Part shown: positions 3,510 to 62,905 of the stretch, one piece after another | Layout: every line of letters starts with the position of its first letter | Position numbering within the stretch: the stretch's first letter is position 1 | IMG/VR virus record: IMGVR_UViG_3300025333_000001 | Reading direction: 5' to 3' (one strand) | DNA: 64,000 nucleotides | Source: an uncultured virus (IMG/VR IMGVR_UViG_3300025333_000001) | Taxonomy: Duplodnaviria > Heunggongvirae > Uroviricota > Caudoviricetes > Thumleimavirales > Hafunaviridae | Program-made: the position numbers and the translations under genes | The notes under the pieces: model-generated | The model's input: the letters and a program-made list of their open reading frames with translations, nothing else | Told to the model about the DNA's origin: nothing | Databases searched by the model: none

Positions 3510-4765
3510 GTTGGTCCCCCAATTCGCGGGGGGTATCGTGTATCCAATGCCGGGGATACAAGCCGGTGTCGGGGGAGTCGCGCGGCTCATACCGGGCGAC
3601 CCCCTCACCGACAGAGTGAATACTGCTGGTGTTTGCAGACTATCATCGCTCGTAAGAACTTCGTGCTGGTTCGTAACGAACCCCCTAAATCGGGGGCCGC
3701 CCTAACAGTCGAAAGGAAGGCTCAATGCTTCCCGGCCCGGTAGGGGCCTAGGCTCCGTTGCGCCATTTGTAAACGGGTTCATGCCGATGCTACATCGTTC
3801 TCAGATGGATTCATCGGTTGTCACCGGGGGCTTAAGGCCCCCTTTTGCGCAGTATCGATCACTCCAATTCGCTCGCTTCCTTCCCCTCGCGGGGGTTTCG
3901 GGCGGGAATCTTCGACGTGTCGATTTCCGTGGCGGGTGAGCTAAGTCTGGTGGTGTCATGGGATTTTGATCGTCGGTCGGCCTTCGTCAGGGTCAATGGT
4001 GCGCAGTCAAAATCCTTTGCACTGCGATTACCCCTTTACAGGGGGGCAACACCTCTCCCTTCCGCGATTCGGTCCAATTCAGTTCTTTCCGGCTGCCATC
4101 TCTTCCTGCTTGCGCTTTCCGATAATGACAGTGAGGTCGCTGGTAGCTATTAGAGTCTCGATTTATCACCCGATTACGGGATTTCGCACCGCATCCCAAC
4201 CGAGTTTCACGATCCCGCCCCCTCTCGGGGTGCAACTGAGGAACACTCAGGGGTCGCTATTCGGGGGTGGAGACTTACTCCCACATCCACGACTGACATC
4301 TTGCCCACGCCATTGTATGACCCCCTTAAAGGGGGCACAGCGTGTCAATGCCGTCGCTTCAGCATGGCCCGAAGGCCGCGACGTGATTAACTCGTGATAC
4401 ATGAGGATTAGGGTCGAACTCGATGGGGGCTGTAAGGGGGCAACCCACCCCATCTTTAGATATTCGGCGGCCATTCACCACATCCCCCGTAGGGGATCTG
4501 ACTGACCGTCCCTCGTTAGCCCCCCTTACGGGATTTCACTGATCAACCTACCGGGGGGCATCTTCTATCGCACGAAGGCGATTTACACGTACCAGCCAAC
4601 CTCAAGGCCCCCCATACCACCCCTGAATCGGGGTAGATCACCGCCCTAAAACGGGGGGTGGGGGGCCTCTCTCTCGTGTGCGGACACACAGACAGAGTGA
4701 GGCAAGCGGACACCGACCCAGTCTAAACAGACCGGGCGTAGCCGCAGCGGGCTACGAGGTGTGAC
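3510..4765 (-). ncRNA. candidate large (~1.25 kb) structured non-coding RNA
   Basis: No credible ORF; continuous hairpins capped by GNRA/UNCG loops only in the minus orientation; TATA-like promoter at 4787-4792. Confidence 0.7.
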
Positions 4766-5090: not shown

Positions 5091-5409
5091 GTGTTGTAAC
5101 TGTGCGGTGCTGTGCTGTGCGGTGCTGTAGTTGCGGTGCTGTGCGGTGCTGTACTGTTGTGTTACTGTAGCAGCACCCTCCCCGAATTACAGCACGAGGG
5201 GTTAAACCTACGGTGTTAACCCCCGGTGTTGTAACTGTGCGGTGCTGTGCGGTGCTGTGCTGTGCGGTGCTGTAGTTGCGGTGCTGTGCGGTGCTGTGCT
5301 GTGCGGTGCTGTAGTTGCGGTGCTGTGCGGTGCTGTAGTTGCGGTGCTGTGCGGTGCTGTACTGTTGTGTTACTGTAGCAGCACCCTCCCCGAATTACAG
5401 CACGAGGGG
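5091..5409. repeat. two tandem copies of an intergenic repeat made of GTGCTGTGCG/GTAGTTGCG microrepeats plus a CCCGAATTACAGCACGAG tail
   Basis: Copies at 5091-5201 and 5226-5409; related to 35735-35895 and 54811-54970. Confidence 0.85.
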
Positions 5410-6773: not shown

Positions 6774-6994
6774 TGCGATTGGAGCAACGGGTTGGCTTGA
6801 CTTAAGGCTTGGGGTGCCCAAAACCGCAAGACGGCGCGGGGTTCACCGGCTCAGAAGGGGCTATACCAATACCCGCGCGTTGCAACGCGTGCGGAAAGGG
6901 AGACCGATACAAACCCCCCCAAAACACTACCACGCACCCCCCGCTGCGGGCCGTCTTCGATCATCGACACACCCCTCAAACCGACTGTGGGCAC

Positions 6995-7119
6995 CCCCAG
7001 TTTGAGCCACCCCAGACACCCCAGTTTGAGCCACCCCAGACACCCCAGTTTGGCCCACCCCAGACACCCCAGTTTGAGCCACCCCAGACACCCCAGTTTG
7101 GACCACCCCAGACACCCCA
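6995..7119. repeat. 24-bp tandem repeat, 5 copies
   Basis: CCCCAGTTTG(AG/GC/GA)CCACCCCAGACA at 6995, 7019, 7043, 7067 and 7091. Confidence 0.95.
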
Positions 7120-13132: not shown

Positions 13133-13400
13133 TACCATGGACGATGCTGAAAACGAAAAACTCAACGAAATTCACAACGCGGTACAAGAAACGCAGACCC
13201 AAATTCGAGTTATCCACGAACGAACCGGAAATATGGATAGCAGACTTCAAAATGTCAAAGAAGAGGCCGAGAAAAACAGCAATGACATTGACGACCTCGA
13301 ATCATCTGTTAACCGGAATACCACCGCCGTAGCTGGTATAACCAGTGCGATTACCGCCAGTGCGGTGTGGATTGGCAATAAGCTGATAAAATTATTTTAA
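13119..13400 (+). CDS. small coiled-coil protein with a C-terminal hydrophobic helix
   Basis: Heptad-like N-terminal part followed by AVAGITSAITASAVWIG. Confidence 0.6.
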   Translation: MKTPDTMDDAENEKLNEIHNAVQETQTQIRVIHERTGNMDSRLQNVKEEAEKNSNDIDDLESSVNRNTTAVAGITSAITASAVWIGNKLIKLF

Positions 13401-35711: not shown

Positions 35712-35734
35712 CCTACTGGGGGGAACATTTTGCG

Positions 35735-35895
35735 TTTAGACTGCGGTGTTAAACAGTGGGTTTATACCTCTGTAGCAACTAAGCTGTGCTGTAGCGGTGC
35801 GTTGCTGTGTGGTGCTGTGTGGTGCTGTACTGTTGTGTTATTGTAGCGCCCCCCTCCTCGAATTACAACACGAGTTGTTACACCACGGGGTTGAC
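35735..35895. repeat. ~160-bp intergenic repeat, direct copy of 54811-54970
   Basis: Near-identical alignment by eye. Confidence 0.9.
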
Positions 35896-49548: not shown

Positions 49549-50742
49549 TTAGGCCCGCCGTTCGACTTCCGCGGCGGCTGCTTCCCAGTCGATGGAGTCG
49601 AGGTCGTCAACCTCGTCTTCGGAGAACTCACGGAGTTCGTCCGGTTCGACCTCGCCATCGGTGCGGGCGAAGTAGTCGAGCAGATCATCGATCTCTTCGA
49701 AGTCGTCAGCGTTGGACTCGGTGTCGTCGCCGCTCTCGTCAGAGACGCTGGTGGCCTCGTCAGCGGCTTCCGGCTCGTCAGCCGACTCGGTGGTGTCGGG
49801 GGATGCCGTCGCGCTGTCGTCGGACGTGCTGGCGGCCTGCGTGCCGCCGTCAGCCGTCGCGGTCTGCTCGGCCTCGCTGTCGGCCTCGTCCTCGGCTTCC
49901 GACGCGGTGTCAGACTCCGACTCTGACTCCGACTCGTCGCCATCGAAGTTGTCAATGGTGATGCGCTCGCCAGTCTTCGCATCGAGGAGGATGGGCGTGG
50001 TGTACTGCACCTCTTCGTCGCCGAACTCGGCTGTCTCCTCGATGATGAACAGCTCCATCTCGCGGCCTTCGATGCCCTCGCGGAGTTCGGGGTCCATGTT
50101 GGTAAGCCAACCGTGGCTTTCAGTAACCGACACCATGTCGCCGTTGTCGCCCTCTTCTTTGGCGATGATGTCGTCACCGTCGGCGGTGATGAGCTTCGCC
50201 AGCGTGCGGACCCACGAACTGTTGGATAGAAGCATCGAAACCTCTCCAACCACGATGGAGTCCGACGTGGTTTTCACTTCCAGATCGTTGTTAGTAGCCA
50301 TGTCGCCCGACCCTTCGACAATCGCCCCGACAGGCGTGTAGAAGTAGTCGTTGCCACCGAACGTCTCGGAGAAACCGACCACTCGTGGGTGGTCGAGAAT
50401 TTCCTGCGCGGACATCTCGTTGCTGTACTCCACGCCGTTGTCGCCGGGCGTTGCCTGCTCGTAGACTTTGCCGGTGTCGGGGTCCACGTTGAAGAACTTG
50501 CCCGGCGAAAAGACCTTCCACGTCCCCGGCTTGTTGTCGCGCTGGAAGACGATGCCGTCGAGGATTTCGACATCATCGAAGCCTGCGATGAACTTGTCGC
50601 CGTACTGCGAATCGAAGGCGTTGACTCGATCACCTGTGACACGGATTGCGCTGTACTTCTGAAGTTTCAGCGTGATGTCATCGAAGTCGCCGCTGGTTGA
50701 ACTGCCGGTGCCGCTGCCTGAGTGCTGATTGTAGCGTGACAT
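49549..50742 (-). CDS. putative ssDNA-binding/recombination protein with a long acidic tail
   Basis: Start MSRYNQ at 50742; strong codon bias; promoter at 50821-50832; function inferred from context. Confidence 0.55.
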   Translation of the reverse strand: MSRYNQHSGSGTGSSTSGDFDDITLKLQKYSAIRVTGDRVNAFDSQYGDKFIAGFDDVEILDGIVFQRDNKPGTWKVFSPGKFFNVDPDTGKVYEQATPGDNGVEYSNEMSAQEILDHPRVVGFSETFGGNDYFYTPVGAIVEGSGDMATNNDLEVKTTSDSIVVGEVSMLLSNSSWVRTLAKLITADGDDIIAKEEGDNGDMVSVTESHGWLTNMDPELREGIEGREMELFIIEETAEFGDEEVQYTTPILLDAKTGERITIDNFDGDESESESESDTASEAEDEADSEAEQTATADGGTQAASTSDDSATASPDTTESADEPEAADEATSVSDESGDDTESNADDFEEIDDLLDYFARTDGEVEPDELREFSEDEVDDLDSIDWEAAAAEVERRA

Positions 50743-51176
50743 TGTTGCGTTAGGTTGTGTTCTCCGCTGCACGGTAGGACACTCGTCGTGAGTGCCTACT
50801 CTAACAGTATTGACCCGCCGACTTAATTGTTTGGTTATTAAGCCGGGGTACTGTCTACGGTGGAGTAGGCCGTAGAGGCTACGTCTCGGAATCGAACCGA
50901 GAATCGCCCAGTCGTAGCGACCGCGTTGTTGGTTGAGTGTGGAGCAAAACAGGGCAACGCACAGCCCCACGAATGTGCGTTGATACCTCCGGGGGACAAC
51001 CCCGGTAAGCAATTCAGTGGTGTAATCACTCGTGTTGTAACTCGATGACGCCGCCCGCCTGCTGTAACGCAAGAGGAGTTACTACCGAGGGTGCTACTGG
51101 GTCTTGATCCCGTGGTGATCCACCGCGGTTGTCGTCGTGGCAACTACATTTGCAGAAGTCGCCACATTGCTCACAT

Positions 51177-51734: not shown

Positions 51735-51787
51735 GGTTGTGTTCCACGCGTTAATTATTTGCGTCGGACGCGTGTTTCCGACGAAAG

Positions 51788-51860
51788 TAGTTCCACGCGG
51801 ATTCGAACCGCGGTCGTTTGGCCCAAAACCAAACAGGATTGCCCGCTACCCCATGGAACT
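51788..51860 (-). tRNA. tRNA-Gln(UUG)
   Basis: Full cloverleaf; anticodon arm TTTGG-TTTTGGG-CCAAA; TTCGAAT T-loop. Confidence 0.9.
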
Positions 51861-52597: not shown

Positions 52598-52670
52598 AGA
52601 TCAGGGCCGGATTCGAACCGGCGTCTGTACGGATCTGCAATCCGTTGCGTAACCACTCGGCCACCTGATC
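52598..52670 (-). tRNA. tRNA-Cys(GCA)
   Basis: Cloverleaf; anticodon arm ACGGA-TTGCAGA-TCCGT. Confidence 0.9.
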
Positions 52671-52973: not shown

Positions 52974-53068
52974 TGGTTCCAGTGGGATTTGAACCCACGT
53001 TGCATGTCAGAGTAGGTTGCTCCTACCCGTGCTACGGAAGCGTGTTGTCCGTGCTACACTATGGAACC
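52974..53068 (-). ncRNA. tRNA-like RNA with an aberrant anticodon/variable region
   Basis: Perfect acceptor, D and T arms; the central ~42 nt do not form a normal anticodon arm. Confidence 0.7.
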
Positions 53069-54551: not shown

Positions 54552-54810
54552 GATTGCAAACGTTTAAGTCGCTCCGCGATAATTGTTTAGTGAGAGCAAG
54601 CCAGCCACGGCGAGCTACTGCTATTCCATTCGTTGGGGTGTTGAGGGTTGGTACTCCGAGTATCAACTCTCCGCGCTTCAACTGGGTTTCAACTGGGTTT
54701 CAACTGTGGGGTTCAACCACTGGGGTTCAACCTCACAGTAAGTACAGTACTACAGCACTAACCGTTAGAGCAACCTCATCGAGTTACAACACCGAGTTGT
54801 TACACCACGG

Positions 54811-54970
54811 TTTAGACTGCGGTGTTAAACAATGGGTTTATACCTCTGTAGCAACTAAGCTGTGTTGTAGCGGTGCGTTGCTGTGTGGTGCTGTGTGGTG
54901 CTGTACTGTTGTGTTATTGTAGTAGCCCCGTCCTCGAATTACAACACGAGTTGTTACAACACTGGGTTGA
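54811..54970. repeat. ~160-bp intergenic repeat, direct copy of 35735-35895
   Basis: Near-identical alignment. Confidence 0.9.
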
Positions 54971-54976
54971 TACCTT

Positions 54977-55073
54977 CAGTAGTAACCCTACAGTAGTAAC
55001 CCTACAGTAGTAACCCTACAGTAGTAACCCTACAGTAGTAACCCTACAGTAGTAACCCTACAGTAGTAACCCT
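54977..55073. repeat. 14-bp perfect tandem repeat, ~7 copies
   Basis: (CAGTAGTAACCCTA)x6 plus 13/14 nt. Confidence 0.95.
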
Positions 55074-55143
55074 TAAGGTAATCCCCCTTCTGTATGTTTC
55101 CCCCTTTGTAGCAAACCGTGGGTGGCTGCCCTCGTGTTTCCCG

Positions 55144-55630: not shown

Positions 55631-56122
55631 ATGGCAGTATTTACCATTCTCGTTGACCGACGAGAACAGAAGCCATGGCTGTTCGAGAACTACCCGGTCG
55701 ATACCAAAGAAGTAACGCTCGAAACCGGCGACTACACCATTGCGGAACTCTGTGAGTACAACGACGAATACGACACCTGTGTTCCCTCACTGGCCGTCGA
55801 ACGGAAGTCCGGCCCCGATCTTCTACAGTCGATTACTCACGAACACGCTCGATTCCGCCGCGAGATTGTTCGTGCAGAGGATTGGGACGAACCGCTGCAA
55901 ATCTACGTCGAAGAGCCATGGGGGACGTTCATGAACAACCGCGGGTTCATGGACTACCGCGATGTCAGCCCGGCACAAGTCAATGGCATTGTCACGACCA
56001 TGGGAAGGAAATACAACGCCGACTTCAACTTTTACTCGGATCGTCAACGAGCCGAGCAAGCGGCGTTCGATAAGCTGATGACGTGGTATCGTGCAGAGCA
56101 GTACTCGCCAGCCTCACCGTGA
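55631..56122 (+). CDS. ERCC4-domain (XPF/Mus81-like) nuclease
   Basis: VDRREQ, GDY, VERKS..DL..SI. Confidence 0.88.
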   Translation: MAVFTILVDRREQKPWLFENYPVDTKEVTLETGDYTIAELCEYNDEYDTCVPSLAVERKSGPDLLQSITHEHARFRREIVRAEDWDEPLQIYVEEPWGTFMNNRGFMDYRDVSPAQVNGIVTTMGRKYNADFNFYSDRQRAEQAAFDKLMTWYRAEQYSPASP

Positions 56123-56226
56123 CCGGGCTAGCAGGGCGGCTGCTGTCGTCTTTGCACTGGATATGACCAATGACACTCGGTTGGACCAAACGCGCTGAGA
56201 ACGGCTGTCAGCGGCTCGTGTTTCAT

Positions 56227-57082: not shown

Positions 57083-57164
57083 TCCCACACGATGTGGGAA
57101 AGCTGCCGAGGGGGCGTGACCCCCGTGGAGTCTTACTCTTCGGCAGTTACCGCACTGTCAACAC
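57083..57164 (-). repeat. ~82-bp structured repeat, copy 1 (tRNA-like fold)
   Basis: Matches 59270-59351. Confidence 0.85.
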
Positions 57165-57221
57165 GCTCGGCGACACGGCAGTCAGCCCCGGTCGTTGTAC
57201 ATTCCAACCACATCACATTCA

Positions 57222-57833
57222 ATGACACGAAAACTCCATCAGCAAGATGTCTGCGAGGTCACGGATAACGACCTGCAGACCGAGATCACTCGTCACCTCA
57301 CTGGTGATGTCCTCGCGCTTGCAGTTGAGGACAGTCGCCTACAGTCTCTCGTCCCGATCGCCGGGCAAACCACGCTGTTCGGTGGCCACCTCGACTTCGG
57401 AGAAACCTCGGACCTGTACGCTGCACCGTTGTATGACCCGAACAATGAACAAGCGGCGTACTTCCCGCGGAACAAGAACGAACGCTTCCACTACGGCACA
57501 AACTCGTACGATACCATCGTGACGCTGTTCCCGAAATGCGGGTACTTCCAACGCCCACCGCCGTTCATGGACATGACTCGAATCGTCCGTCCCGGTGGAA
57601 CGCTCGTTGCGGTGACTGGCTTACAGCCAGAATCACCGGATGACCATGACGCGAAATGGTGGGTGCCTGCCAGCGATGACGTTGACTTGGATACCATTCG
57701 CATCCTTCGGTCGAGTGGGTTCAAAACCCCGATTCTCGTGAACGTCTTCACCGTCACGACAAGTACGGAACGGCATCCTGAAGCAGCAGTCGTCACGGGG
57801 CCTGCAGACCGCCGAGAGGAGGTTCAAGCATGA
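57222..57833 (+). CDS. degenerate methyltransferase-like protein
   Basis: NSYDTIV and RIVRPGGTL resemble class I MTase strands. Confidence 0.55.
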   Translation: MTRKLHQQDVCEVTDNDLQTEITRHLTGDVLALAVEDSRLQSLVPIAGQTTLFGGHLDFGETSDLYAAPLYDPNNEQAAYFPRNKNERFHYGTNSYDTIVTLFPKCGYFQRPPPFMDMTRIVRPGGTLVAVTGLQPESPDDHDAKWWVPASDDVDLDTIRILRSSGFKTPILVNVFTVTTSTERHPEAAVVTGPADRREEVQA

Positions 57834-58945
57834 AGCTAACCGATTACACTGACAACGCTGAAACGGACAGTCAGGACCGTCCTGTTGACGCGTTCGATAG
57901 CGAAGCGCTGCACGAAGAAGAACACGAACAGAACGACAATTGGGAATGGAGCGCGGAATTTACGGAGTTCATCCACGACGAGATCGAAGGGCGGTCGTTG
58001 AAGGTCTGTCCGGGACTCCGTCCGATCTGCGACGTGAATCTGGACATCAAACATCTCGGTGACATCGCTGACTCCGACAACGCAGCTTTCAACGTCGAAC
58101 CCATCACGAGTAGTTCTGACCGGCTGCAAGACCTTCGTGGAACGGTTAGTGATGATGCCGGGGAAGACATCATCTACGGTCGCATCACCGGTGAGAACGG
58201 CGACACGGACGGCCTGTACGACGGGTACGCGTGCTACGGCGACATGTTCGAACTACCGTTCGATGACAACTCGTTCGACACGGTCGTCGGGGACCCGCCG
58301 TGGTTGAACCTCACAACAGAGGAACGTCGAGTGCTCTTCGAGGAAATCGTTCGCGTCACTGCCCCGACAGGGAAAATCATGTACAACGCCACGTGGATAC
58401 CGGAGGATGAACACGCTCGACAGTTCCAACTCCGATTCCGGCAACAACTGGACTATTGGGGCGGACCGAGCTTCGCAGCGTTCTACCGCCGTTCCGCTCG
58501 TGACATCCCCGAACTGTTCGATGCACATGATTACGAATCCGTAGAGCGATACCCGGAGGAATCCGCGTTCTGGTCAGAGGCGTTGAGTACTGAGCATAAC
58601 ACTGACCCGAAGAAAGTCAGTGGTGACTCTGACTATCACCAGTACTGTTGCCCGATGTGCGGGTGCGCGCAACTCGGGCACCTTCGCGGCGAGTTCTTCG
58701 AAACCAGTGACGGTGAGTACAACACGTATCAGTGTCATAACTGCGAATTCCGTGTTGATTCTGCGGAAGTTAATCGTCTCGCTGAGGCACTGGAAACCGC
58801 AACTGCTGAACAGAACGTCTCCGTACAGGAACTCACCGATATTGAGTACACGCCTTCCTGCGTTGAACAACAGTTAGAACAACTCGGTCCAAATGACTCG
58901 TTGGATGATGCTCCGTTCTCTGCGGACCTTCCGTGGGTACCGTGA
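57830..58945 (+). CDS. SAM-dependent amino-methyltransferase-like protein with a Zn ribbon
   Basis: GDMFELPFDDNSFDTVVGDPPW; CPMC...CHNC. Confidence 0.7.
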   Translation: MKLTDYTDNAETDSQDRPVDAFDSEALHEEEHEQNDNWEWSAEFTEFIHDEIEGRSLKVCPGLRPICDVNLDIKHLGDIADSDNAAFNVEPITSSSDRLQDLRGTVSDDAGEDIIYGRITGENGDTDGLYDGYACYGDMFELPFDDNSFDTVVGDPPWLNLTTEERRVLFEEIVRVTAPTGKIMYNATWIPEDEHARQFQLRFRQQLDYWGGPSFAAFYRRSARDIPELFDAHDYESVERYPEESAFWSEALSTEHNTDPKKVSGDSDYHQYCCPMCGCAQLGHLRGEFFETSDGEYNTYQCHNCEFRVDSAEVNRLAEALETATAEQNVSVQELTDIEYTPSCVEQQLEQLGPNDSLDDAPFSADLPWVP

Positions 58946-59269: not shown

Positions 59270-59351
59270 CCCCACACGGTGTGGGAAAGCTGCCGTGGGG
59301 CCGTGAACCCCGTGGAGTCTTACTCTTCGGCAGCGGTCGCACTGTCAACGC
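59270..59351 (-). repeat. ~82-bp structured repeat, copy 2 (tRNA-like fold)
   Basis: Matches 57083-57164. Confidence 0.85.
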
Positions 59352-59594
59352 GGTTGGCGACCCGCCTCAACATGGCCGCCTGATACTGCTCGTCGGTTGC
59401 TTCTTTCGGGTTTTCACGGTGATACCGTGCGAACCCCGTTGCCAACTCGCGGGCGTCCTCGGGTGACAACGCCCGTTTTTGCTCGCCGATCTGTACCCCC
59501 ACTCGTTTACCATCTTCCGCGACCCATACCTTCATCTCATCGGGACCGCGCATCATGTTCCAGTCGGGGTCGTCAGCAAAGCCGAACGCCACGA

Positions 59595-60956
59595 CTACTC
59601 GTCGGCTGCCGTGGGGGCAACCAACATTTCTTGGAGTTGTTCCTGTCGCGTTTCGAACTCTTCTTTCTGGTCTTCGACCGTGGCTTGGAACTTCTCGACG
59701 GCTGCCCCGTAGGACATGGCATCGAGTTCGCCCTCATCTTCGGCGGCAGCCCGCTGTCGGGCTTCGCGCTGCTGGGCGTTGTTTTCCGTCCGGTCGATGG
59801 CCTGCGCCGGATTCATGATCATGTCGTTGCTCGCCGATACCAACTCGTTGAGGCGGTTGGTGTTCTCCCCACCGCGGTAGTGGTGCGTGATGGCGTAGGT
59901 TGCCCCACTCTGCATCTCCCACATGGTGGGGAGGAACTGGTTGTCGGCACGACTCCGAACGTGACTGGACGCCTCACGGGCGAGGTACGACGGGAAGCCC
60001 GCCATCTCGAACCACGCTTGCAGGTCGTCGGTGTGGCCCACAAGCTCCGAGAACTCGAAACTCAGGTAGTCCACGTCGATCTGGTTGGCCGTCTCGATGA
60101 CTTCGGCCAGTTTGTCAGTCATGAGATCCATGTCGGCAAGAATCTCGTCCCACCATTCGCGGGTTTCCGATGGCTCACCGACGTGACGACGCGACTTCTG
60201 GTCGGTCACGTTGCGGATCGAGTTGGAACACCACGTATCCTGTGCGAACCCTTCGGCGTACATGGCTGTTCCACCGAAGTAGTCGTAGCCAGTGCGGATA
60301 CCGAGGAGGATCGGGCCGCCCGACTCGCCCCCATCGGTAGCCACGTTGGGGTCGGCTCCGGGGTTGTCAATGCGGAAGGCATCGAACAGCATCTCGATGT
60401 GAACCTCACCGCCACCTTTGTAGGTGCGGATCTCCCCGAACACGGCGTCCCCGAGTTCCTCCTCGCGGATGGCCTCTTCGAGCGGGCCGTAGAAGTCGAG
60501 GGGGTTGACAATCGCGTAGTCTTTTGTCGGGTTGTGCCACAGGGGGTCGATCCACTGGTTGTTGTCGTCCCGTCGGGCATCACCCTGAATCCAGCTTTCG
60601 AGCTTGTCGGGCGAGATCACCGACTGGAACCGGTCGGTTTGAACGAACACGTTGCCGTCCATCGTTTCGTGGAACGTGACACCATCGGGGGTGTCGTCGC
60701 TCAGTTCGTCCACGTCGATGTTGCGAGCGACCTGCTCGGGAATCTTCCACGCGTTGCCCGTTTCTTCTGCTCGTTCAAGGCCACGGATGGCTGTTGCGAG
60801 CGAGGTGTCGGGCATATCGTCGGGGTAGAACCCGTTGTCTCGGCTGTGATCACCGCTGGCTGCGTCTGCTGCCTTCTCGCTGAGTTCGACATTGTTATGG
60901 CTGGTTAGTCCTGCAAACTGTACCGTTTCGTCTGGGGTTGAACTTCGTCGGTTCAT
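59595..60956 (-). CDS. DUF932-like protein
   Basis: YAIVNP, WCSN, RHVG and TMWE motifs. Confidence 0.65.
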   Translation of the reverse strand: MNRRSSTPDETVQFAGLTSHNNVELSEKAADAASGDHSRDNGFYPDDMPDTSLATAIRGLERAEETGNAWKIPEQVARNIDVDELSDDTPDGVTFHETMDGNVFVQTDRFQSVISPDKLESWIQGDARRDDNNQWIDPLWHNPTKDYAIVNPLDFYGPLEEAIREEELGDAVFGEIRTYKGGGEVHIEMLFDAFRIDNPGADPNVATDGGESGGPILLGIRTGYDYFGGTAMYAEGFAQDTWCSNSIRNVTDQKSRRHVGEPSETREWWDEILADMDLMTDKLAEVIETANQIDVDYLSFEFSELVGHTDDLQAWFEMAGFPSYLAREASSHVRSRADNQFLPTMWEMQSGATYAITHHYRGGENTNRLNELVSASNDMIMNPAQAIDRTENNAQQREARQRAAAEDEGELDAMSYGAAVEKFQATVEDQKEEFETRQEQLQEMLVAPTAADE

Positions 60957-61008
60957 AGGTTTGTCCCACCAATTGTTTAACCGGAGTCGATGGCGGGTTT
61001 CGACTCGA

Positions 61009-61048
61009 TGAGGCGGCGCAGAGTCGAACTGCGCTACACCAACGCCTC
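61009..61048 (-). ncRNA. tRNA minihelix-like element
   Basis: GAGGCG-N8-GCGCAG UUCGACU CUGCGC CGCCUC A. Confidence 0.65.
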
Positions 61049-61087
61049 GGCGGCTACCGGTCGCTAACTATTCGTTTCCTCGTTGAT

Positions 61088-61573
61088 TTATCCGTTGACG
61101 ACTGCCTCGGCGAACAGACGACCCGACTCAAAGTCGTCTGGCTTAGCGATTACGACTGGGTAGCTGTATCCCCAGTTGTAGTCAGTGAGCCGCTTTGCAA
61201 TCGAGTGCATCACACCACTCACTGCGTAATGGTAGTCCGTCGTGTCGTGTCCCGTGGGAGATAGGTACTCCTTATACCGCGCATCATCAGTAGCTAACAC
61301 GATCACGTCGTCTGTTTCCTCTACAAGCCGGTAGTGACCTTGCTCGATACCATACATGTGCTCACTCCACGTCTCCTCAGCGGACCGCTGGAACGTTTCG
61401 AGAGCTTCGCGCACTTTATTGATATCTTGGATCGCCCCGCCGTCGGTCCCGTGTTCGATGTCGTCGTTGGTGATGTGCTGGGTTCGATCATCGATCTCAC
61501 CGCCGTCGGTTCGGATCTCTGTTGTTTCGCTGACGCACTCTTCAAGATCGTCAAAGTGGACTCGTGGGTTCAT
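61088..61573 (-). CDS. hypothetical protein
   Basis: Start MNPRVH at 61573; TDGG motifs typical of haloarchaeal mobile elements. Confidence 0.65.
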   Translation of the reverse strand: MNPRVHFDDLEECVSETTEIRTDGGEIDDRTQHITNDDIEHGTDGGAIQDINKVREALETFQRSAEETWSEHMYGIEQGHYRLVEETDDVIVLATDDARYKEYLSPTGHDTTDYHYAVSGVMHSIAKRLTDYNWGYSYPVVIAKPDDFESGRLFAEAVVNG

Positions 61574-61574
61574 G

Positions 61575-62180
61575 TTATTGCTCAATTGTAGCTGCGGTTT
61601 GTTCGTCGTCCTGTTCGGCGGCGTCTTCGAGTTCCGACCCGAAGAGGGTCGGCGGCATTTCACCCTGATGGCTGCCATCGTAGGCTTCGGAATCGTCGGC
61701 CTCAACTAAGATGAGTTGGGCGACTGGGTACCCCACTGGCAGGTGAACACAGTCCAACGACTGTGGCACTTGCAGGAGGCCCTCACCAACGCCGTTGTAG
61801 CCTTGATCCCACACCGCAGTGGTGATCTCCATTCCCGACCGCATGAACCGACTGCGCGGCTTCACGAGGCCGACGTGGCCTTCAGGAATGGTGATGTGTT
61901 CGCCGTACTCGATGATATATGACCCCGAATAGACACGGTAGAACGGCGACTTGGTGTTACCCATTGGGTCAAACGTTCGCATTCGAGTTCGCTGGCCGTG
62001 ATCGTAGCCATCGTCGTTGCCCTCGGCGTCGGCATAGAAGTGAACTGTTCCGCTCGTTCGGAGCAGATCACCAACTGTCAGGTCAACCCCGTTGGGCTGA
62101 ATTTGGTCGTCGTCAATCGGTTCGCCGGTTCGGTTTTTGGTGAGGTGTTCAACTACGAACTCCCCGGATCTGACTGTCAT
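61575..62180 (-). CDS. dUTPase/dCTP deaminase family protein
   Basis: QIQPNGVDL, PRSRFMRSG, AVWDQGY.G, VAQL. Confidence 0.88.
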   Translation of the reverse strand: MTVRSGEFVVEHLTKNRTGEPIDDDQIQPNGVDLTVGDLLRTSGTVHFYADAEGNDDGYDHGQRTRMRTFDPMGNTKSPFYRVYSGSYIIEYGEHITIPEGHVGLVKPRSRFMRSGMEITTAVWDQGYNGVGEGLLQVPQSLDCVHLPVGYPVAQLILVEADDSEAYDGSHQGEMPPTLFGSELEDAAEQDDEQTAATIEQ

Positions 62181-62256
62181 AGTTTGGATTTTATGTGTTT
62201 GTTCATCAACTATTCGCTCTCGAAATTTTGGGCGATTTTCCGTGAGTTTTGACCGT

Positions 62257-62730
62257 TTATGCTATCGCCCCATTGTGATTTATCGACCATTCAACGTAAT
62301 CGCTCCATTCTTTGGCGAAGTTGTTGCGTTTTTTCGCGTTGAACTCGCGGATGGTATCGAGATCTTCGGCACTCCACCCGTATTCAGCCGCCTGTTCTCT
62401 ATCACGAAGATACGGCCATGCGGTTACGGCGATCAGATAGCCGTCGTGGTGGTGTCCGGCAATGAACCACCATTCGACGCCGTCGTTGTGTCTCATCCAA
62501 TGAAAGGATGAACAGCCGTCGCCGTTGTTTTTCAACTCACCCTCAACGATTGTTCGCTGAATGACCTCGTTGGTCAAAAACCGCTCAGGATCTTTGAACC
62601 GCTGTCGGAAGTGATCTGTTCGCCGGTATTTGTGTGGTTGGTGAGGGTAATCAGCGGGGTCAAACGTTCGTGACCGATCAACGGGAACCCGCTCATCGGA
62701 ATTGTGCGGTACTTGTACTGTTGGATTCAT
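62257..62730 (-). CDS. hypothetical protein
   Basis: Start MNPTVQ at 62730; TDHFRQR. Confidence 0.6.
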   Translation of the reverse strand: MNPTVQVPHNSDERVPVDRSRTFDPADYPHQPHKYRRTDHFRQRFKDPERFLTNEVIQRTIVEGELKNNGDGCSSFHWMRHNDGVEWWFIAGHHHDGYLIAVTAWPYLRDREQAAEYGWSAEDLDTIREFNAKKRNNFAKEWSDYVEWSINHNGAIA

Positions 62731-62766
62731 GGTAGTATTTGTCCCGTCGAACTGCACGACGGGGGA

Positions 62767-62808
62767 TGCACTGCCGGGGAATCGAACCCCGAGTCGCCCA
62801 TTCAGTGC
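62767..62808 (-). ncRNA. tRNA minihelix-like element
   Basis: GCACUG-N10-UCGGGG UUCGAUU CCCCGG CAGUGC A. Confidence 0.65.
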
Positions 62809-62905
62809 TGGCATCACGAGTCCCCACTCGATGACGCCGCCGACGGAGGTTGCTCACTCCGAGTAAATAATTAACTCGGGGGGACTTAGTTGTTACGTCC
62901 GGGGG

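Follow-up and report, generated by a model that had tools for sequence, protein, structure and literature searches.

tRNA-Like Elements as Known and Proposed Processing Signals

The MALAT1 mascRNA and MEN-beta modules of eukaryotes adopt a tRNA-like fold within a longer transcript and are cut by RNase P and RNase Z. Hanic-Joyce is said to have described t-elements in plant mitochondria in 1990, and a t-element upstream of the 5S rRNA of Haloferax volcanii was reportedly the subject of papers by Hölzle et al. in 2008 (RNA 14:928) and 2012 (Biochimie 94:940). Papers on haloarchaea describe the pre-5S element as a tRNA-like structure that is cut by tRNase Z and is a substrate of both RNase P and tRNase Z in vivo, and the Haloferax t-element as serving, with RNase P, as a processing cassette (PMC4326828, PMC4946936, PMC7714728, PMC3296008). 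The t-elements of plant mitochondria are tRNA-like sequences whose ends coincide with the 5' or 3' termini of mRNAs; their proposed role is to guide RNase Z and RNase P to their cleavage sites in long transcripts, with tRNAs and t-elements acting as interchangeable punctuation (Forner et al. 2007, PMC1920247). Here we analyze a 64,000-nt stretch of DNA (the window) from the uncultured virus IMGVR_UViG_3300025333_000001, a haloarchaeal tailed virus. It carries intergenic minihelices that appear to be viral t-elements: mini-tRNAs of 40-42 nt, of the same kind as the haloarchaeal pre-5S element.

The Haloferax t-element resembles the viral copies in its length of 42 nt, its 5-6-bp acceptor stem, its GG-containing linker of about 10 nt, its 6-bp T stem, its TTCGAYT loop and its discriminator. 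Unlike it, the viral copies, whose cleavage is a prediction, lie between protein genes, occur several times per ~70 kb and each precede a hairpin and then a start codon; their stems bear no sequence relation to those of the Haloferax element. The mitochondrial t-elements offer an analogy only. They are organellar, usually about 70 nt long, imperfect cloverleaves with mapped termini and no sequence relationship to the minihelices, whereas in the viral elements 8-10 nt replace the D and anticodon arms. The Rfam model for mascRNA/MEN-beta (RF01684), run against the window, left the elements unmatched, and its sole sub-threshold match was a true tRNA-Gln. Among viruses, the tRNA genes and attP sites of the HF1 group share with the minihelices that they are non-coding, tRNA-derived and found in Hafunaviridae. 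As described, the attP sites are partial tRNAs of 57-72 nt, each an exact match to a host tRNA and located next to an integrase gene (PMC8707807, PMC7230728). The minihelices differ from them in having both acceptor strands, no anticodon arm, no host match and several copies per genome.

Structure of the Viral Minihelices

On the minus strand at 61009-61048, element 1 reads GAGGCG/TTGGTGTA/GCGCAG/TTCGACT/CTGCGC/CGCCTC/A. Element 2, at 62767-62808 on the same strand, reads GCACTG/AATGGGCGAC/TCGGGG/TTCGATT/CCCCGG/CAGTGC/A. The initial annotation had proposed for both a 6-bp outer stem, a 6-bp T stem with a UUCGAYU loop and a short linker, and this geometry holds at the proposed coordinates. The linker is 8 nt long in element 1, which represents a subtype, and 10 nt long in element 2; in both, the two 3' strands stack directly and a discriminator A follows the stem. 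The description of the two as unrelated in sequence stands for the stems, which differ, but not for the linker GG and the T-loop, which are common to both, and one covariance model scores both elements. A descriptor scan located element 3, a third copy that is absent from the initial annotation, at 50877-50918 (minus strand), with the linker ACTGGGCGAT, the loop TTCGATT and the discriminator C.

The descriptor demanded a perfect 12-bp stack, a TTCGANN loop and a linker of 3-20 nt. Five sites in the window satisfied it; 100 dinucleotide shuffles averaged 0.08 and never exceeded 1. The five are the three elements, a spurious internal pairing in the true tRNA-Gln and an AT-rich site at 13283-13323. 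This last site is not scored by the covariance model and looks like chance. Elements 1 and 2 were also considered as tRNA genes and rejected as such, being only 40-42 nt each; ARAGORN calls four true tRNA genes at 51.8-53.1 kb and none at either element, and an Rfam tRNA search finds no match at either, even at E<=10.

Two minor features stand beside these elements. The T-loop of element 1 plus one base (TTCGACTC, 61021-61028) is perfectly complementary to GAGTCGAA (60999-61006) downstream on the minus strand, and GAGTCGAA alternatively pairs with TCGACTC (60984-60990), forming the hairpin that trails the element. The competing pairings might toggle the element between a masked and a tRNA-like form, or might be coincidental. 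At 50986-51020 (minus strand), about 70 nt upstream of element 3, lies a decayed look-alike of element 2, in which CCACTGAAT has the 5' strand and linker start of that element, followed by a CCGGGG-TTGT-CCCCCGG hairpin and lacking a matching 3' acceptor strand. The motif GGCGGCGTCATCGAGT precedes both the look-alike and element 2.

A Conserved and Covarying Family

These elements are members of an intergenic family that is conserved and strand-specific and whose stems covary. A covariance model, R1, was seeded with six viral copies, namely elements 1 to 3 and three descriptor-found copies from two relatives. With filters off, R1 scores element 2 at 53.7, element 3 at 53.3 and element 1 at 47.0 bits in the window, where the next-best match (16.1 bits) is the T arm of a true tRNA. 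The initial annotation had suggested a search across haloviruses, and R1 finds copies in four of the first four relatives and in 14 of 14 further viral records; each genome search scored 42-150 candidates. Copies also occur in five of eight other haloarchaeal tailed viruses: they are clear in HF2, HRTV-8 and HRTV-5, moderate in HRTV-4 and weak in HGTV-1, and HHTV-1, HCTV-1 and HVTV-1 gave no R1 match at E<=0.01. In genomes with several copies, all strong matches (>34 bits) lie on one strand.

The 34 matches collapse to 22 distinct sequences in which the stems vary freely. The linker GG is present in 22 of 22, shifted two columns in one, and the T-loop is TTCGANT in 21 and TTCAATT in the other. 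The loop TTCGAAT, which three of the four true tRNAs of the window carry, is never seen in the 22 minihelices. Pairing is maintained in 95.8% of the 264 pair cells, against 58.6% in shuffles and 42-54% with slid partners, and 11 of the 12 pairs change on both sides, counts to be read with the caveat that the seeds were picked by a descriptor demanding pairing and that the alignment was fitted to R1. Helix 1, the acceptor stem, is 93% paired, and six of its six pairs change on both sides. Positional counterparts, which differ by compensatory change, give support of a less circular kind. The counterpart of element 2 in HSTV-2 (56117-56158) has no stem sequence in common with it, and the upstream genes are homologous (40% identity, E 9e-49). 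The HF2 and HRTV-8 copies, which precede the same gene, differ by a compensatory pair (GCTCCG/CGGAGC vs GCCCCG/CGGGGC). Copies identical to element 1 precede the same DUF932-type gene in two IMG/VR relatives.

Pattern searches yielded few further members. The pattern GGGCGN6GGTTCGANTCC retrieved mostly true tRNAs from IMG/VR, with seven minihelices among 80 loci inspected from a longer list. A stricter pattern gave 101 matches in species genomes, and the 80 inspected comprised one strong minihelix (Natrinema), one weak minihelix (Halovenus) and otherwise tRNAs or coding sequence. The Natrinema copy has a provirus-like context, and ARAGORN calls a 77-nt 'tRNA-Arg' across it; we read this as a probably forced call because the context matches viral loci. 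Among the variants listed from metagenome DNA contigs, many fall in the flanking genes and none in 60919-61109 or in element 2, and no conclusion on conservation is drawn from this.

The 23S-5S Spacer Element and Other Chromosomal Copies

R1, built from viral copies only, matches 33 of 151 Halobacteria genomes at E<=0.001, often with 2-6 equal-scoring copies in each. An Rfam check placed 9 of 20 host loci between the 3' end of the 23S rRNA and the 5S rRNA, which begins 1-2 nt past the match; R1 gives these spacer elements 32-39 bits. On visual inspection, 13 of 30 host loci are of the spacer type, with a 42-nt layout and the linker A-N-T-GG-T-A-T. One example reads ACCGAG/ACTGGTATCC/TCGTGG/TTCGACT/CCACGA/CTCGGC/G, after which the 5S begins. 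The host linker recurs in the viral copies L164 and L171 and, as GGCATA, in the HRTV-7 copy. On this basis, the minihelices very probably form one family with the haloarchaeal t-element, which has been validated by experiment.

The other 17 host loci are intergenic, and in 10 of them an open reading frame (ORF) of at least 50 aa starts 1-27 nt past the discriminator. At loci L292 and L283 the start codon follows after just 1 and 3 nt, so that a tRNase Z cut would leave a leaderless mRNA. These copies suggest that such a cut can also yield leaderless mRNAs. The 2012 study of Hölzle et al. reportedly lists further Haloferax elements, some of which may resemble these non-rRNA host copies. The chromosomal minihelices L305, L307, L289 and L297 lie 17-94 nt ahead of genes with N-terminal twin-arginine (Tat) signal motifs. 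The contexts of L277 (Natrinema) and L281 match IMG/VR viral contigs, and these two copies are probably proviral.

Placement Ahead of Start Codons

All 24 contexts inspected are intergenic and place the element on the strand of the flanking ORFs. In 23 of them, the same-strand upstream ORF terminates anywhere from 16 nt within the element to 158 nt ahead of it; in the other, L173, the distance is 447 nt. Downstream, a same-strand ATG ORF begins after 31-60 nt in 18 of the 24. The remaining contexts include element 3, at 134 nt, one that runs off its contig, and at least three (L155, L156 and L003b) in which a nearer ATG was skipped by the ORF-length filter. The initial annotation had put each element 35-55 nt upstream of a gene. 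This is borne out, with ATG 60956 lying 52 nt after element 1 and ATG 62730 lying 36 nt after element 2. PHROG profile alignments confirm the start at 60956, are compatible with that at 62730, and place the gene start after element 3 at 50742. In HSTV-2 the minihelix sits in an unannotated 139-nt gap between genes 90 and 89.

In most of the 24 members the discriminator is followed, after 1-5 nt, by a GC-rich hairpin of 5-7 bp. Read from the sequence of the minus strand, this hairpin is GAGTCGA/TCGACTC at 60984-61006, 2 nt past element 1, CCCGTCG/CGACGGG at 62743-62763, 3 nt past element 2, and CTACGG/CCGTAG at 50855-50875, 1 nt past element 3. In Mincapvirus-like genomes the motif GGGACA(C/A)AAcc comes after the hairpin, just ahead of the ATG. 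A motif scan of the window located GGGACAAA on the minus strand at 60960-60967, 3 nt ahead of ATG 60956, and at 62738-62745, 7 nt ahead of ATG 62730; in relatives it likewise precedes the starts that come after minihelices.

True tRNA genes, called by both ARAGORN and Rfam, fill minihelix-type slots in the same gene string. The tRNA-Gln at 51787-51860 (minus strand) lies 53 nt before ATG 51734 and is followed by a hairpin and GGAACACAAcc. The tRNA-Cys at 52598-52670 (minus strand) lies 53 nt before ATG 52544, the start of a Dam-type methyltransferase gene. The tRNA-Ala(AGC) at 52974-53068 (minus strand) is 95 nt long with an insertion of about 34 nt in its anticodon region in the Rfam alignment, which may be an intron.

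Some further features of these intergenic regions were observed. The general motif GG(G/A)ACA(C/A)A(A)cc has its first base at 62745, 60967, 51745, 43302, 40684, 2316 and 1471 (minus strand), 1-7 nt before leftward starts with or without a minihelix, and does not match a Shine-Dalgarno sequence. Relatives also have it, and HF2 has GGGTGACACCG. A LAGLIDADG endonuclease gene extends 16 nt into the HRTV-7 minihelix (L142 3900-3941; record 54584-54625). Gene 84 (DUF932) of HRTV-7 is annotated with a start that abuts the minihelix, 60 nt upstream of the one used in other viruses, and this start is probably mis-called. A conserved (T)AAGACT(T/C), in which the stop codon of the preceding gene is followed by GACT, lies ahead of many elements, among them L162, L165, L167 and the HF2 copy (4344-4357), and also occurs in the linker of the type C repeats described below. 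In HF2 it is the 'alpha' motif of the intergenic promoter repeats, and in L165 it forms a 12-bp hairpin that ends at the 5' end of the minihelix.

Proposed Processing of Viral Transcripts

The initial annotation had read the elements as tRNA mimics that punctuate polycistronic mRNAs. The conserved, covarying family and the likeness to the spacer element speak for this reading, and an RNA end known from HF2, which falls at neither predicted cut, speaks against it. In the mechanism that we envisage, the leftward gene string would be transcribed across the element, and the linker GG would stand in for G18-G19 of the D-loop, allowing a tRNA elbow to form. Host tRNase Z would then cut after the discriminator and host RNase P at the 5' end of the acceptor stem, separating the upstream from the downstream message. 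The downstream mRNA would begin 1-5 nt before the small GC hairpin and 30-60 nt before the start codon, and the true viral tRNA genes in equivalent slots would do the same job. Viral and spacer elements share one host group and would therefore encounter a single pair of enzymes, its tRNase Z and RNase P. That these enzymes cut the viral copies, separating and shaping the mRNAs, is the best-supported mechanism, and we hold it to be on balance probable. It is possible, if short of probable, that Hafunaviridae-type viruses more broadly use a mitochondrion-style tRNA punctuation of early and middle transcripts, in which tRNA genes and 42-nt mini-tRNAs are interchangeable cut marks and each cut leaves a hairpin-capped 5' end.

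Several observations weigh against processing by tRNA enzymes. The acceptor stem has only 6 bp, and its first pair is unpaired in 9 of the 22 distinct sequences. The minimum-energy fold of element 1 is the proposed structure (-19.6 kcal/mol, z -2.85), but that of element 2 (-20.3, z -2.53) keeps the outer stem and re-pairs the inside, so that the T arm is not formed. In an 81-nt context both elements are thermodynamically unexceptional (z -0.29 and -0.12); their in-context stability is not significant, and the support is therefore comparative, not energetic. No supporting RNA end emerged from a search covering 23 DNA-type metagenome runs and one metatranscriptome, with contigs examined from four runs, and the sole RNA contig (61946-62209) lies away from the elements. 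The remaining two points come from HF2 and from upstream sequence composition. Primer extension in HF2 gave a 5' end, 'TSS T-4384', which its authors read as a transcription start, with a promoter said to overlap CTAAAGACTTAGAA, a motif that takes in the stop codon of the upstream gene. The HF2 minihelix corresponds to AF222060.2 4375-4415, and base 4384 is its first linker G, at position 10. This 5' end thus falls within the minihelix and coincides with neither of the predicted cuts, which are at 4375 for RNase P and after 4415 for tRNase Z. Moreover, an A/T-rich hexamer lies 21-36 nt upstream of the linker G in 17 of 27 viral copies, compared with 22% of random positions, although this background is drawn largely from coding sequence and the stop codon of the upstream gene is part of many hexamers.

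These last two points would fit a promoter-linked leader, in which transcription starts at the linker G, only the T arm and the hairpin after it enter the mRNA leader, and there they tune stability or translation with no tRNA enzyme involved. The proposed HF2 promoter is just upstream of the mapped 5' end, and a constant distance to the start codon suits a leader element. A promoter beside many copies is plausible. Whether the elements are embedded in a longer transcript receives mixed indications: the stretch from minihelix to ATG is GC-rich, structured and devoid of an evident TATA box, and the ORFs on either side share a strand, but the A/T box ahead of many copies and the HF2 5' end suggest starts in or close to the element. 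Against the leader as a full explanation, a transcript starting in the linker would be without the 5' acceptor strand, and this strand covaries with the 3' strand throughout helix 1, so that at least some RNAs must span the whole element. The host copies in the 5S leader have the same layout within an rRNA operon, where no promoter is expected. Elements 2 and 3 have no A/T box at the corresponding place (3/6 and 4/6), and primer extension does not distinguish primary from processed 5' ends. We therefore consider the promoter-linked leader by itself unlikely, and an internal promoter and processing of read-through transcripts may coexist.

The released minihelix could instead be the product: a stable 42-nt RNA, perhaps CCA-tailed, that titrates, or simply binds, factors of host or virus that recognize the acceptor/T-arm half of tRNA, with mRNA cutting as a by-product. 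The linker GG and T-loop are kept across the 22 distinct sequences, which is more than a bare 12-bp stack needs, and viruses carry 1-4 copies per ~70 kb, far denser than in hosts (54 copies among the matches listed, from 151 genomes). The stems and discriminator are, however, free to vary, hence no shared identity is available to a specific partner; the fixed start-codon spacing points to a role in cis, and the host counterpart is described, in the available portions of its literature, solely as a processing signal. A function of this kind is accordingly quite improbable.

If tRNase Z and RNase P do act at the viral copies, this would be the first tRNA punctuation of its kind in an archaeal virus and would explain the unexplained processing of long halovirus transcripts. 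The HF2 authors found long transcripts by RT-PCR but Northern species of 0.5-9 kb, and proposed a processing that they left unexplained. For this shortening, the minihelices are concrete and conserved candidate signals whose predicted cut sites are exact. A host enzyme pair has already been shown to process a look-alike element, and the culturable viruses HSTV-2, HRTV-7 and HF2 carry copies. A literature search that did not cover subscription papers found no report of tRNA-like minihelices or t-elements in archaeal viruses. What appears to be new is the presence of t-elements in viruses, the element type itself being already known in Haloferax. The range of t-elements would thereby widen to viruses and to haloarchaeal chromosomal loci near protein genes, several of which encode Tat-signal proteins, and unannotated features are flagged in published halovirus genomes.

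tRNA Ancestry and Attachment Sites

The initial annotation had named host tRNA 3' halves retained as att remnants as one refutation of its reading. The elements, each extended by flanks of 12 nt, were searched against 401 Halobacteria genomes, a sample outside which the true host may fall. No match in these genomes reaches 90% identity over a whole 3' half, and exact stretches are at most 22 nt and lie away from the acceptor end. The best matches of element 2 are 85-88% identical over 28-39 nt; two of its six best loci overlap tRNA-Gly(UCC) genes, and one overlaps an 84-nt ARAGORN call. Element 1 has exact matches of 17-18 nt on CTGCGCCGCCTCATCGAG, which we read as a probable coincidence of acidic-peptide coding because the window holds many copies of such a motif. 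The best match of element 3 covers 22 nt of linker plus T arm. Element 2 does not reproduce any host att site of the sampled genomes, and att remnants are unlikely because no host tRNA 3' half matches the elements.

Descent from a tRNA is a separate matter. From a comparison of GCACTG...CAGTGCA and the linker AATGG, element 2 probably descends from a tRNA-Gly-like gene through loss of the region from the D stem to the variable region. The likeness of its 3' half to the 3' parts of host tRNA-Gly(UCC) (86-88% over 29-33 nt) makes tRNA descent likely and lends something to the idea that the minihelices are mere remnants of tRNA genes, either partial tRNAs of the attP type, such as the HF1 group is described as carrying (PMC8707807, PMC7230728), or decaying pseudogenes without function. 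Yet 22 different sequences keep, at 8-10 nt from the T arm, a 5' strand complementary to the 3' one, as att remnants would not. The several copies of each genome, moreover, all occupy the coding strand and keep a fixed spacing to the start codon. A Pfam scan of 24 window ORFs found no integrase. Taken with the missing 3'-half matches, this makes the remnant explanation very improbable.

The Virus and Its Neighboring Genes

Nucleotide matches (about 70%) and protein matches (67-71% for the 453-aa gene at 59595-60956) connect the window with HSTV-2, HRTV-7, HRTV-2, HRTV-11 and HCTV-6/15, and the records of these viruses assign them to the genus Mincapvirus of the Hafunaviridae. This 453-aa gene (minus strand), which lies 3' of element 1, matches phrog_13083 and is annotated as DUF932 in relatives. 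The gene 3' of element 2 (62257-62730, minus strand) matches phrog_14318. The ORFs that neighbor the elements include a dCTP-deaminase-like gene, a cold-shock-domain protein, the DUF932-type gene and unknowns. Salt-lake metagenome runs contain DNA nearly identical to the window. A protein scan of species genomes found no further relatives, and a metagenome scan yielded four near-identical fragments only.

Type C Repeats and Possible Module Boundaries

The initial annotation had grouped the minihelices with elements at 57.1 and 59.3 kb. These have a related geometry, which makes the grouping reasonable; their loop is non-canonical, and R1 does not score them. The element at 59290-59333 (minus strand), here termed type C, has a CTGCCG/CGGCAG outer stem, a 15-nt linker and the inner hairpin GGGG-TTCACGG-CCCC; a second copy lies at 57103-57146 (minus strand). 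Both are contained in repeat D17, a pair of 94-nt direct repeats (57084-57177 and 59271-59364) that are 87% identical. The stop codon of the upstream gene falls within the linker; farther on come a CCCAC...GTGGG hairpin and a start codon. Before the DUF932 gene, HSTV-2 and HCTV-6 keep the type C linker and inner hairpin and have GGCGT/ACGCC as the outer stem. A variant at 61210-61258 in HSTV-2 has a canonical TTCGACT loop, a 17-nt linker and a trailing hairpin as in type C. RNAalifold recovered the inner and downstream hairpins but not the outer stem, the alignment being one column off, and the outer stems were read by eye.

The D17 repeats flank an opposite-strand cassette at 57195-58945 (plus strand), which comprises a 212-aa ORF of unknown function and a 371-aa ORF with a methyltransferase domain; at the syntenic place relatives have an integrase instead. 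The whole resembles a unit that was inserted or exchanged, with duplicated tRNA-like elements marking its boundaries. Such an arrangement invites the idea that the intergenic elements act at the DNA level, as recombination junctions between gene modules. The genes upstream of identical copies of element 1 vary between relatives, and the window and metagenome contigs part ways at 62826, a short distance upstream of element 2, and at 61609-61642. These breakpoints, however, fall in the motif GGCGGCGTC(A/T)TCGAGT, outside the minihelices, and covariation and strict strand bias mark an RNA. Both roles could coexist, and as an explanation of the minihelices we find module boundaries highly doubtful.

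The motif GGCGGCGTC(A/T)TCGAGT itself may mark mosaic recombination junctions. It occurs at 62819-62846, 61611-61639, 51033-51060 and about 15 other places (families D2 and D12 to D15), and many of its copies are coding, specifying acidic D/E-A-A peptides. Another repeat family, TCCTCGAATTACAACACGAGT.GTTACACCAC, is found at 5179, 5387, 8130, 35855 and 54931 (plus strand) and at about 51045 (minus strand), and includes a 161-nt pair (35734-35894 vs 54810-54970) that is 95% identical. Like the repeats between the genes of HF2, this family may have a promoter or regulatory function. Tandem repeats are present at 54959-55087, 6971-7119 and 5100-5365, with units of 14 nt (~9 copies) and 24 nt (~5 copies) and an array of the GTGCTGTGCG type.

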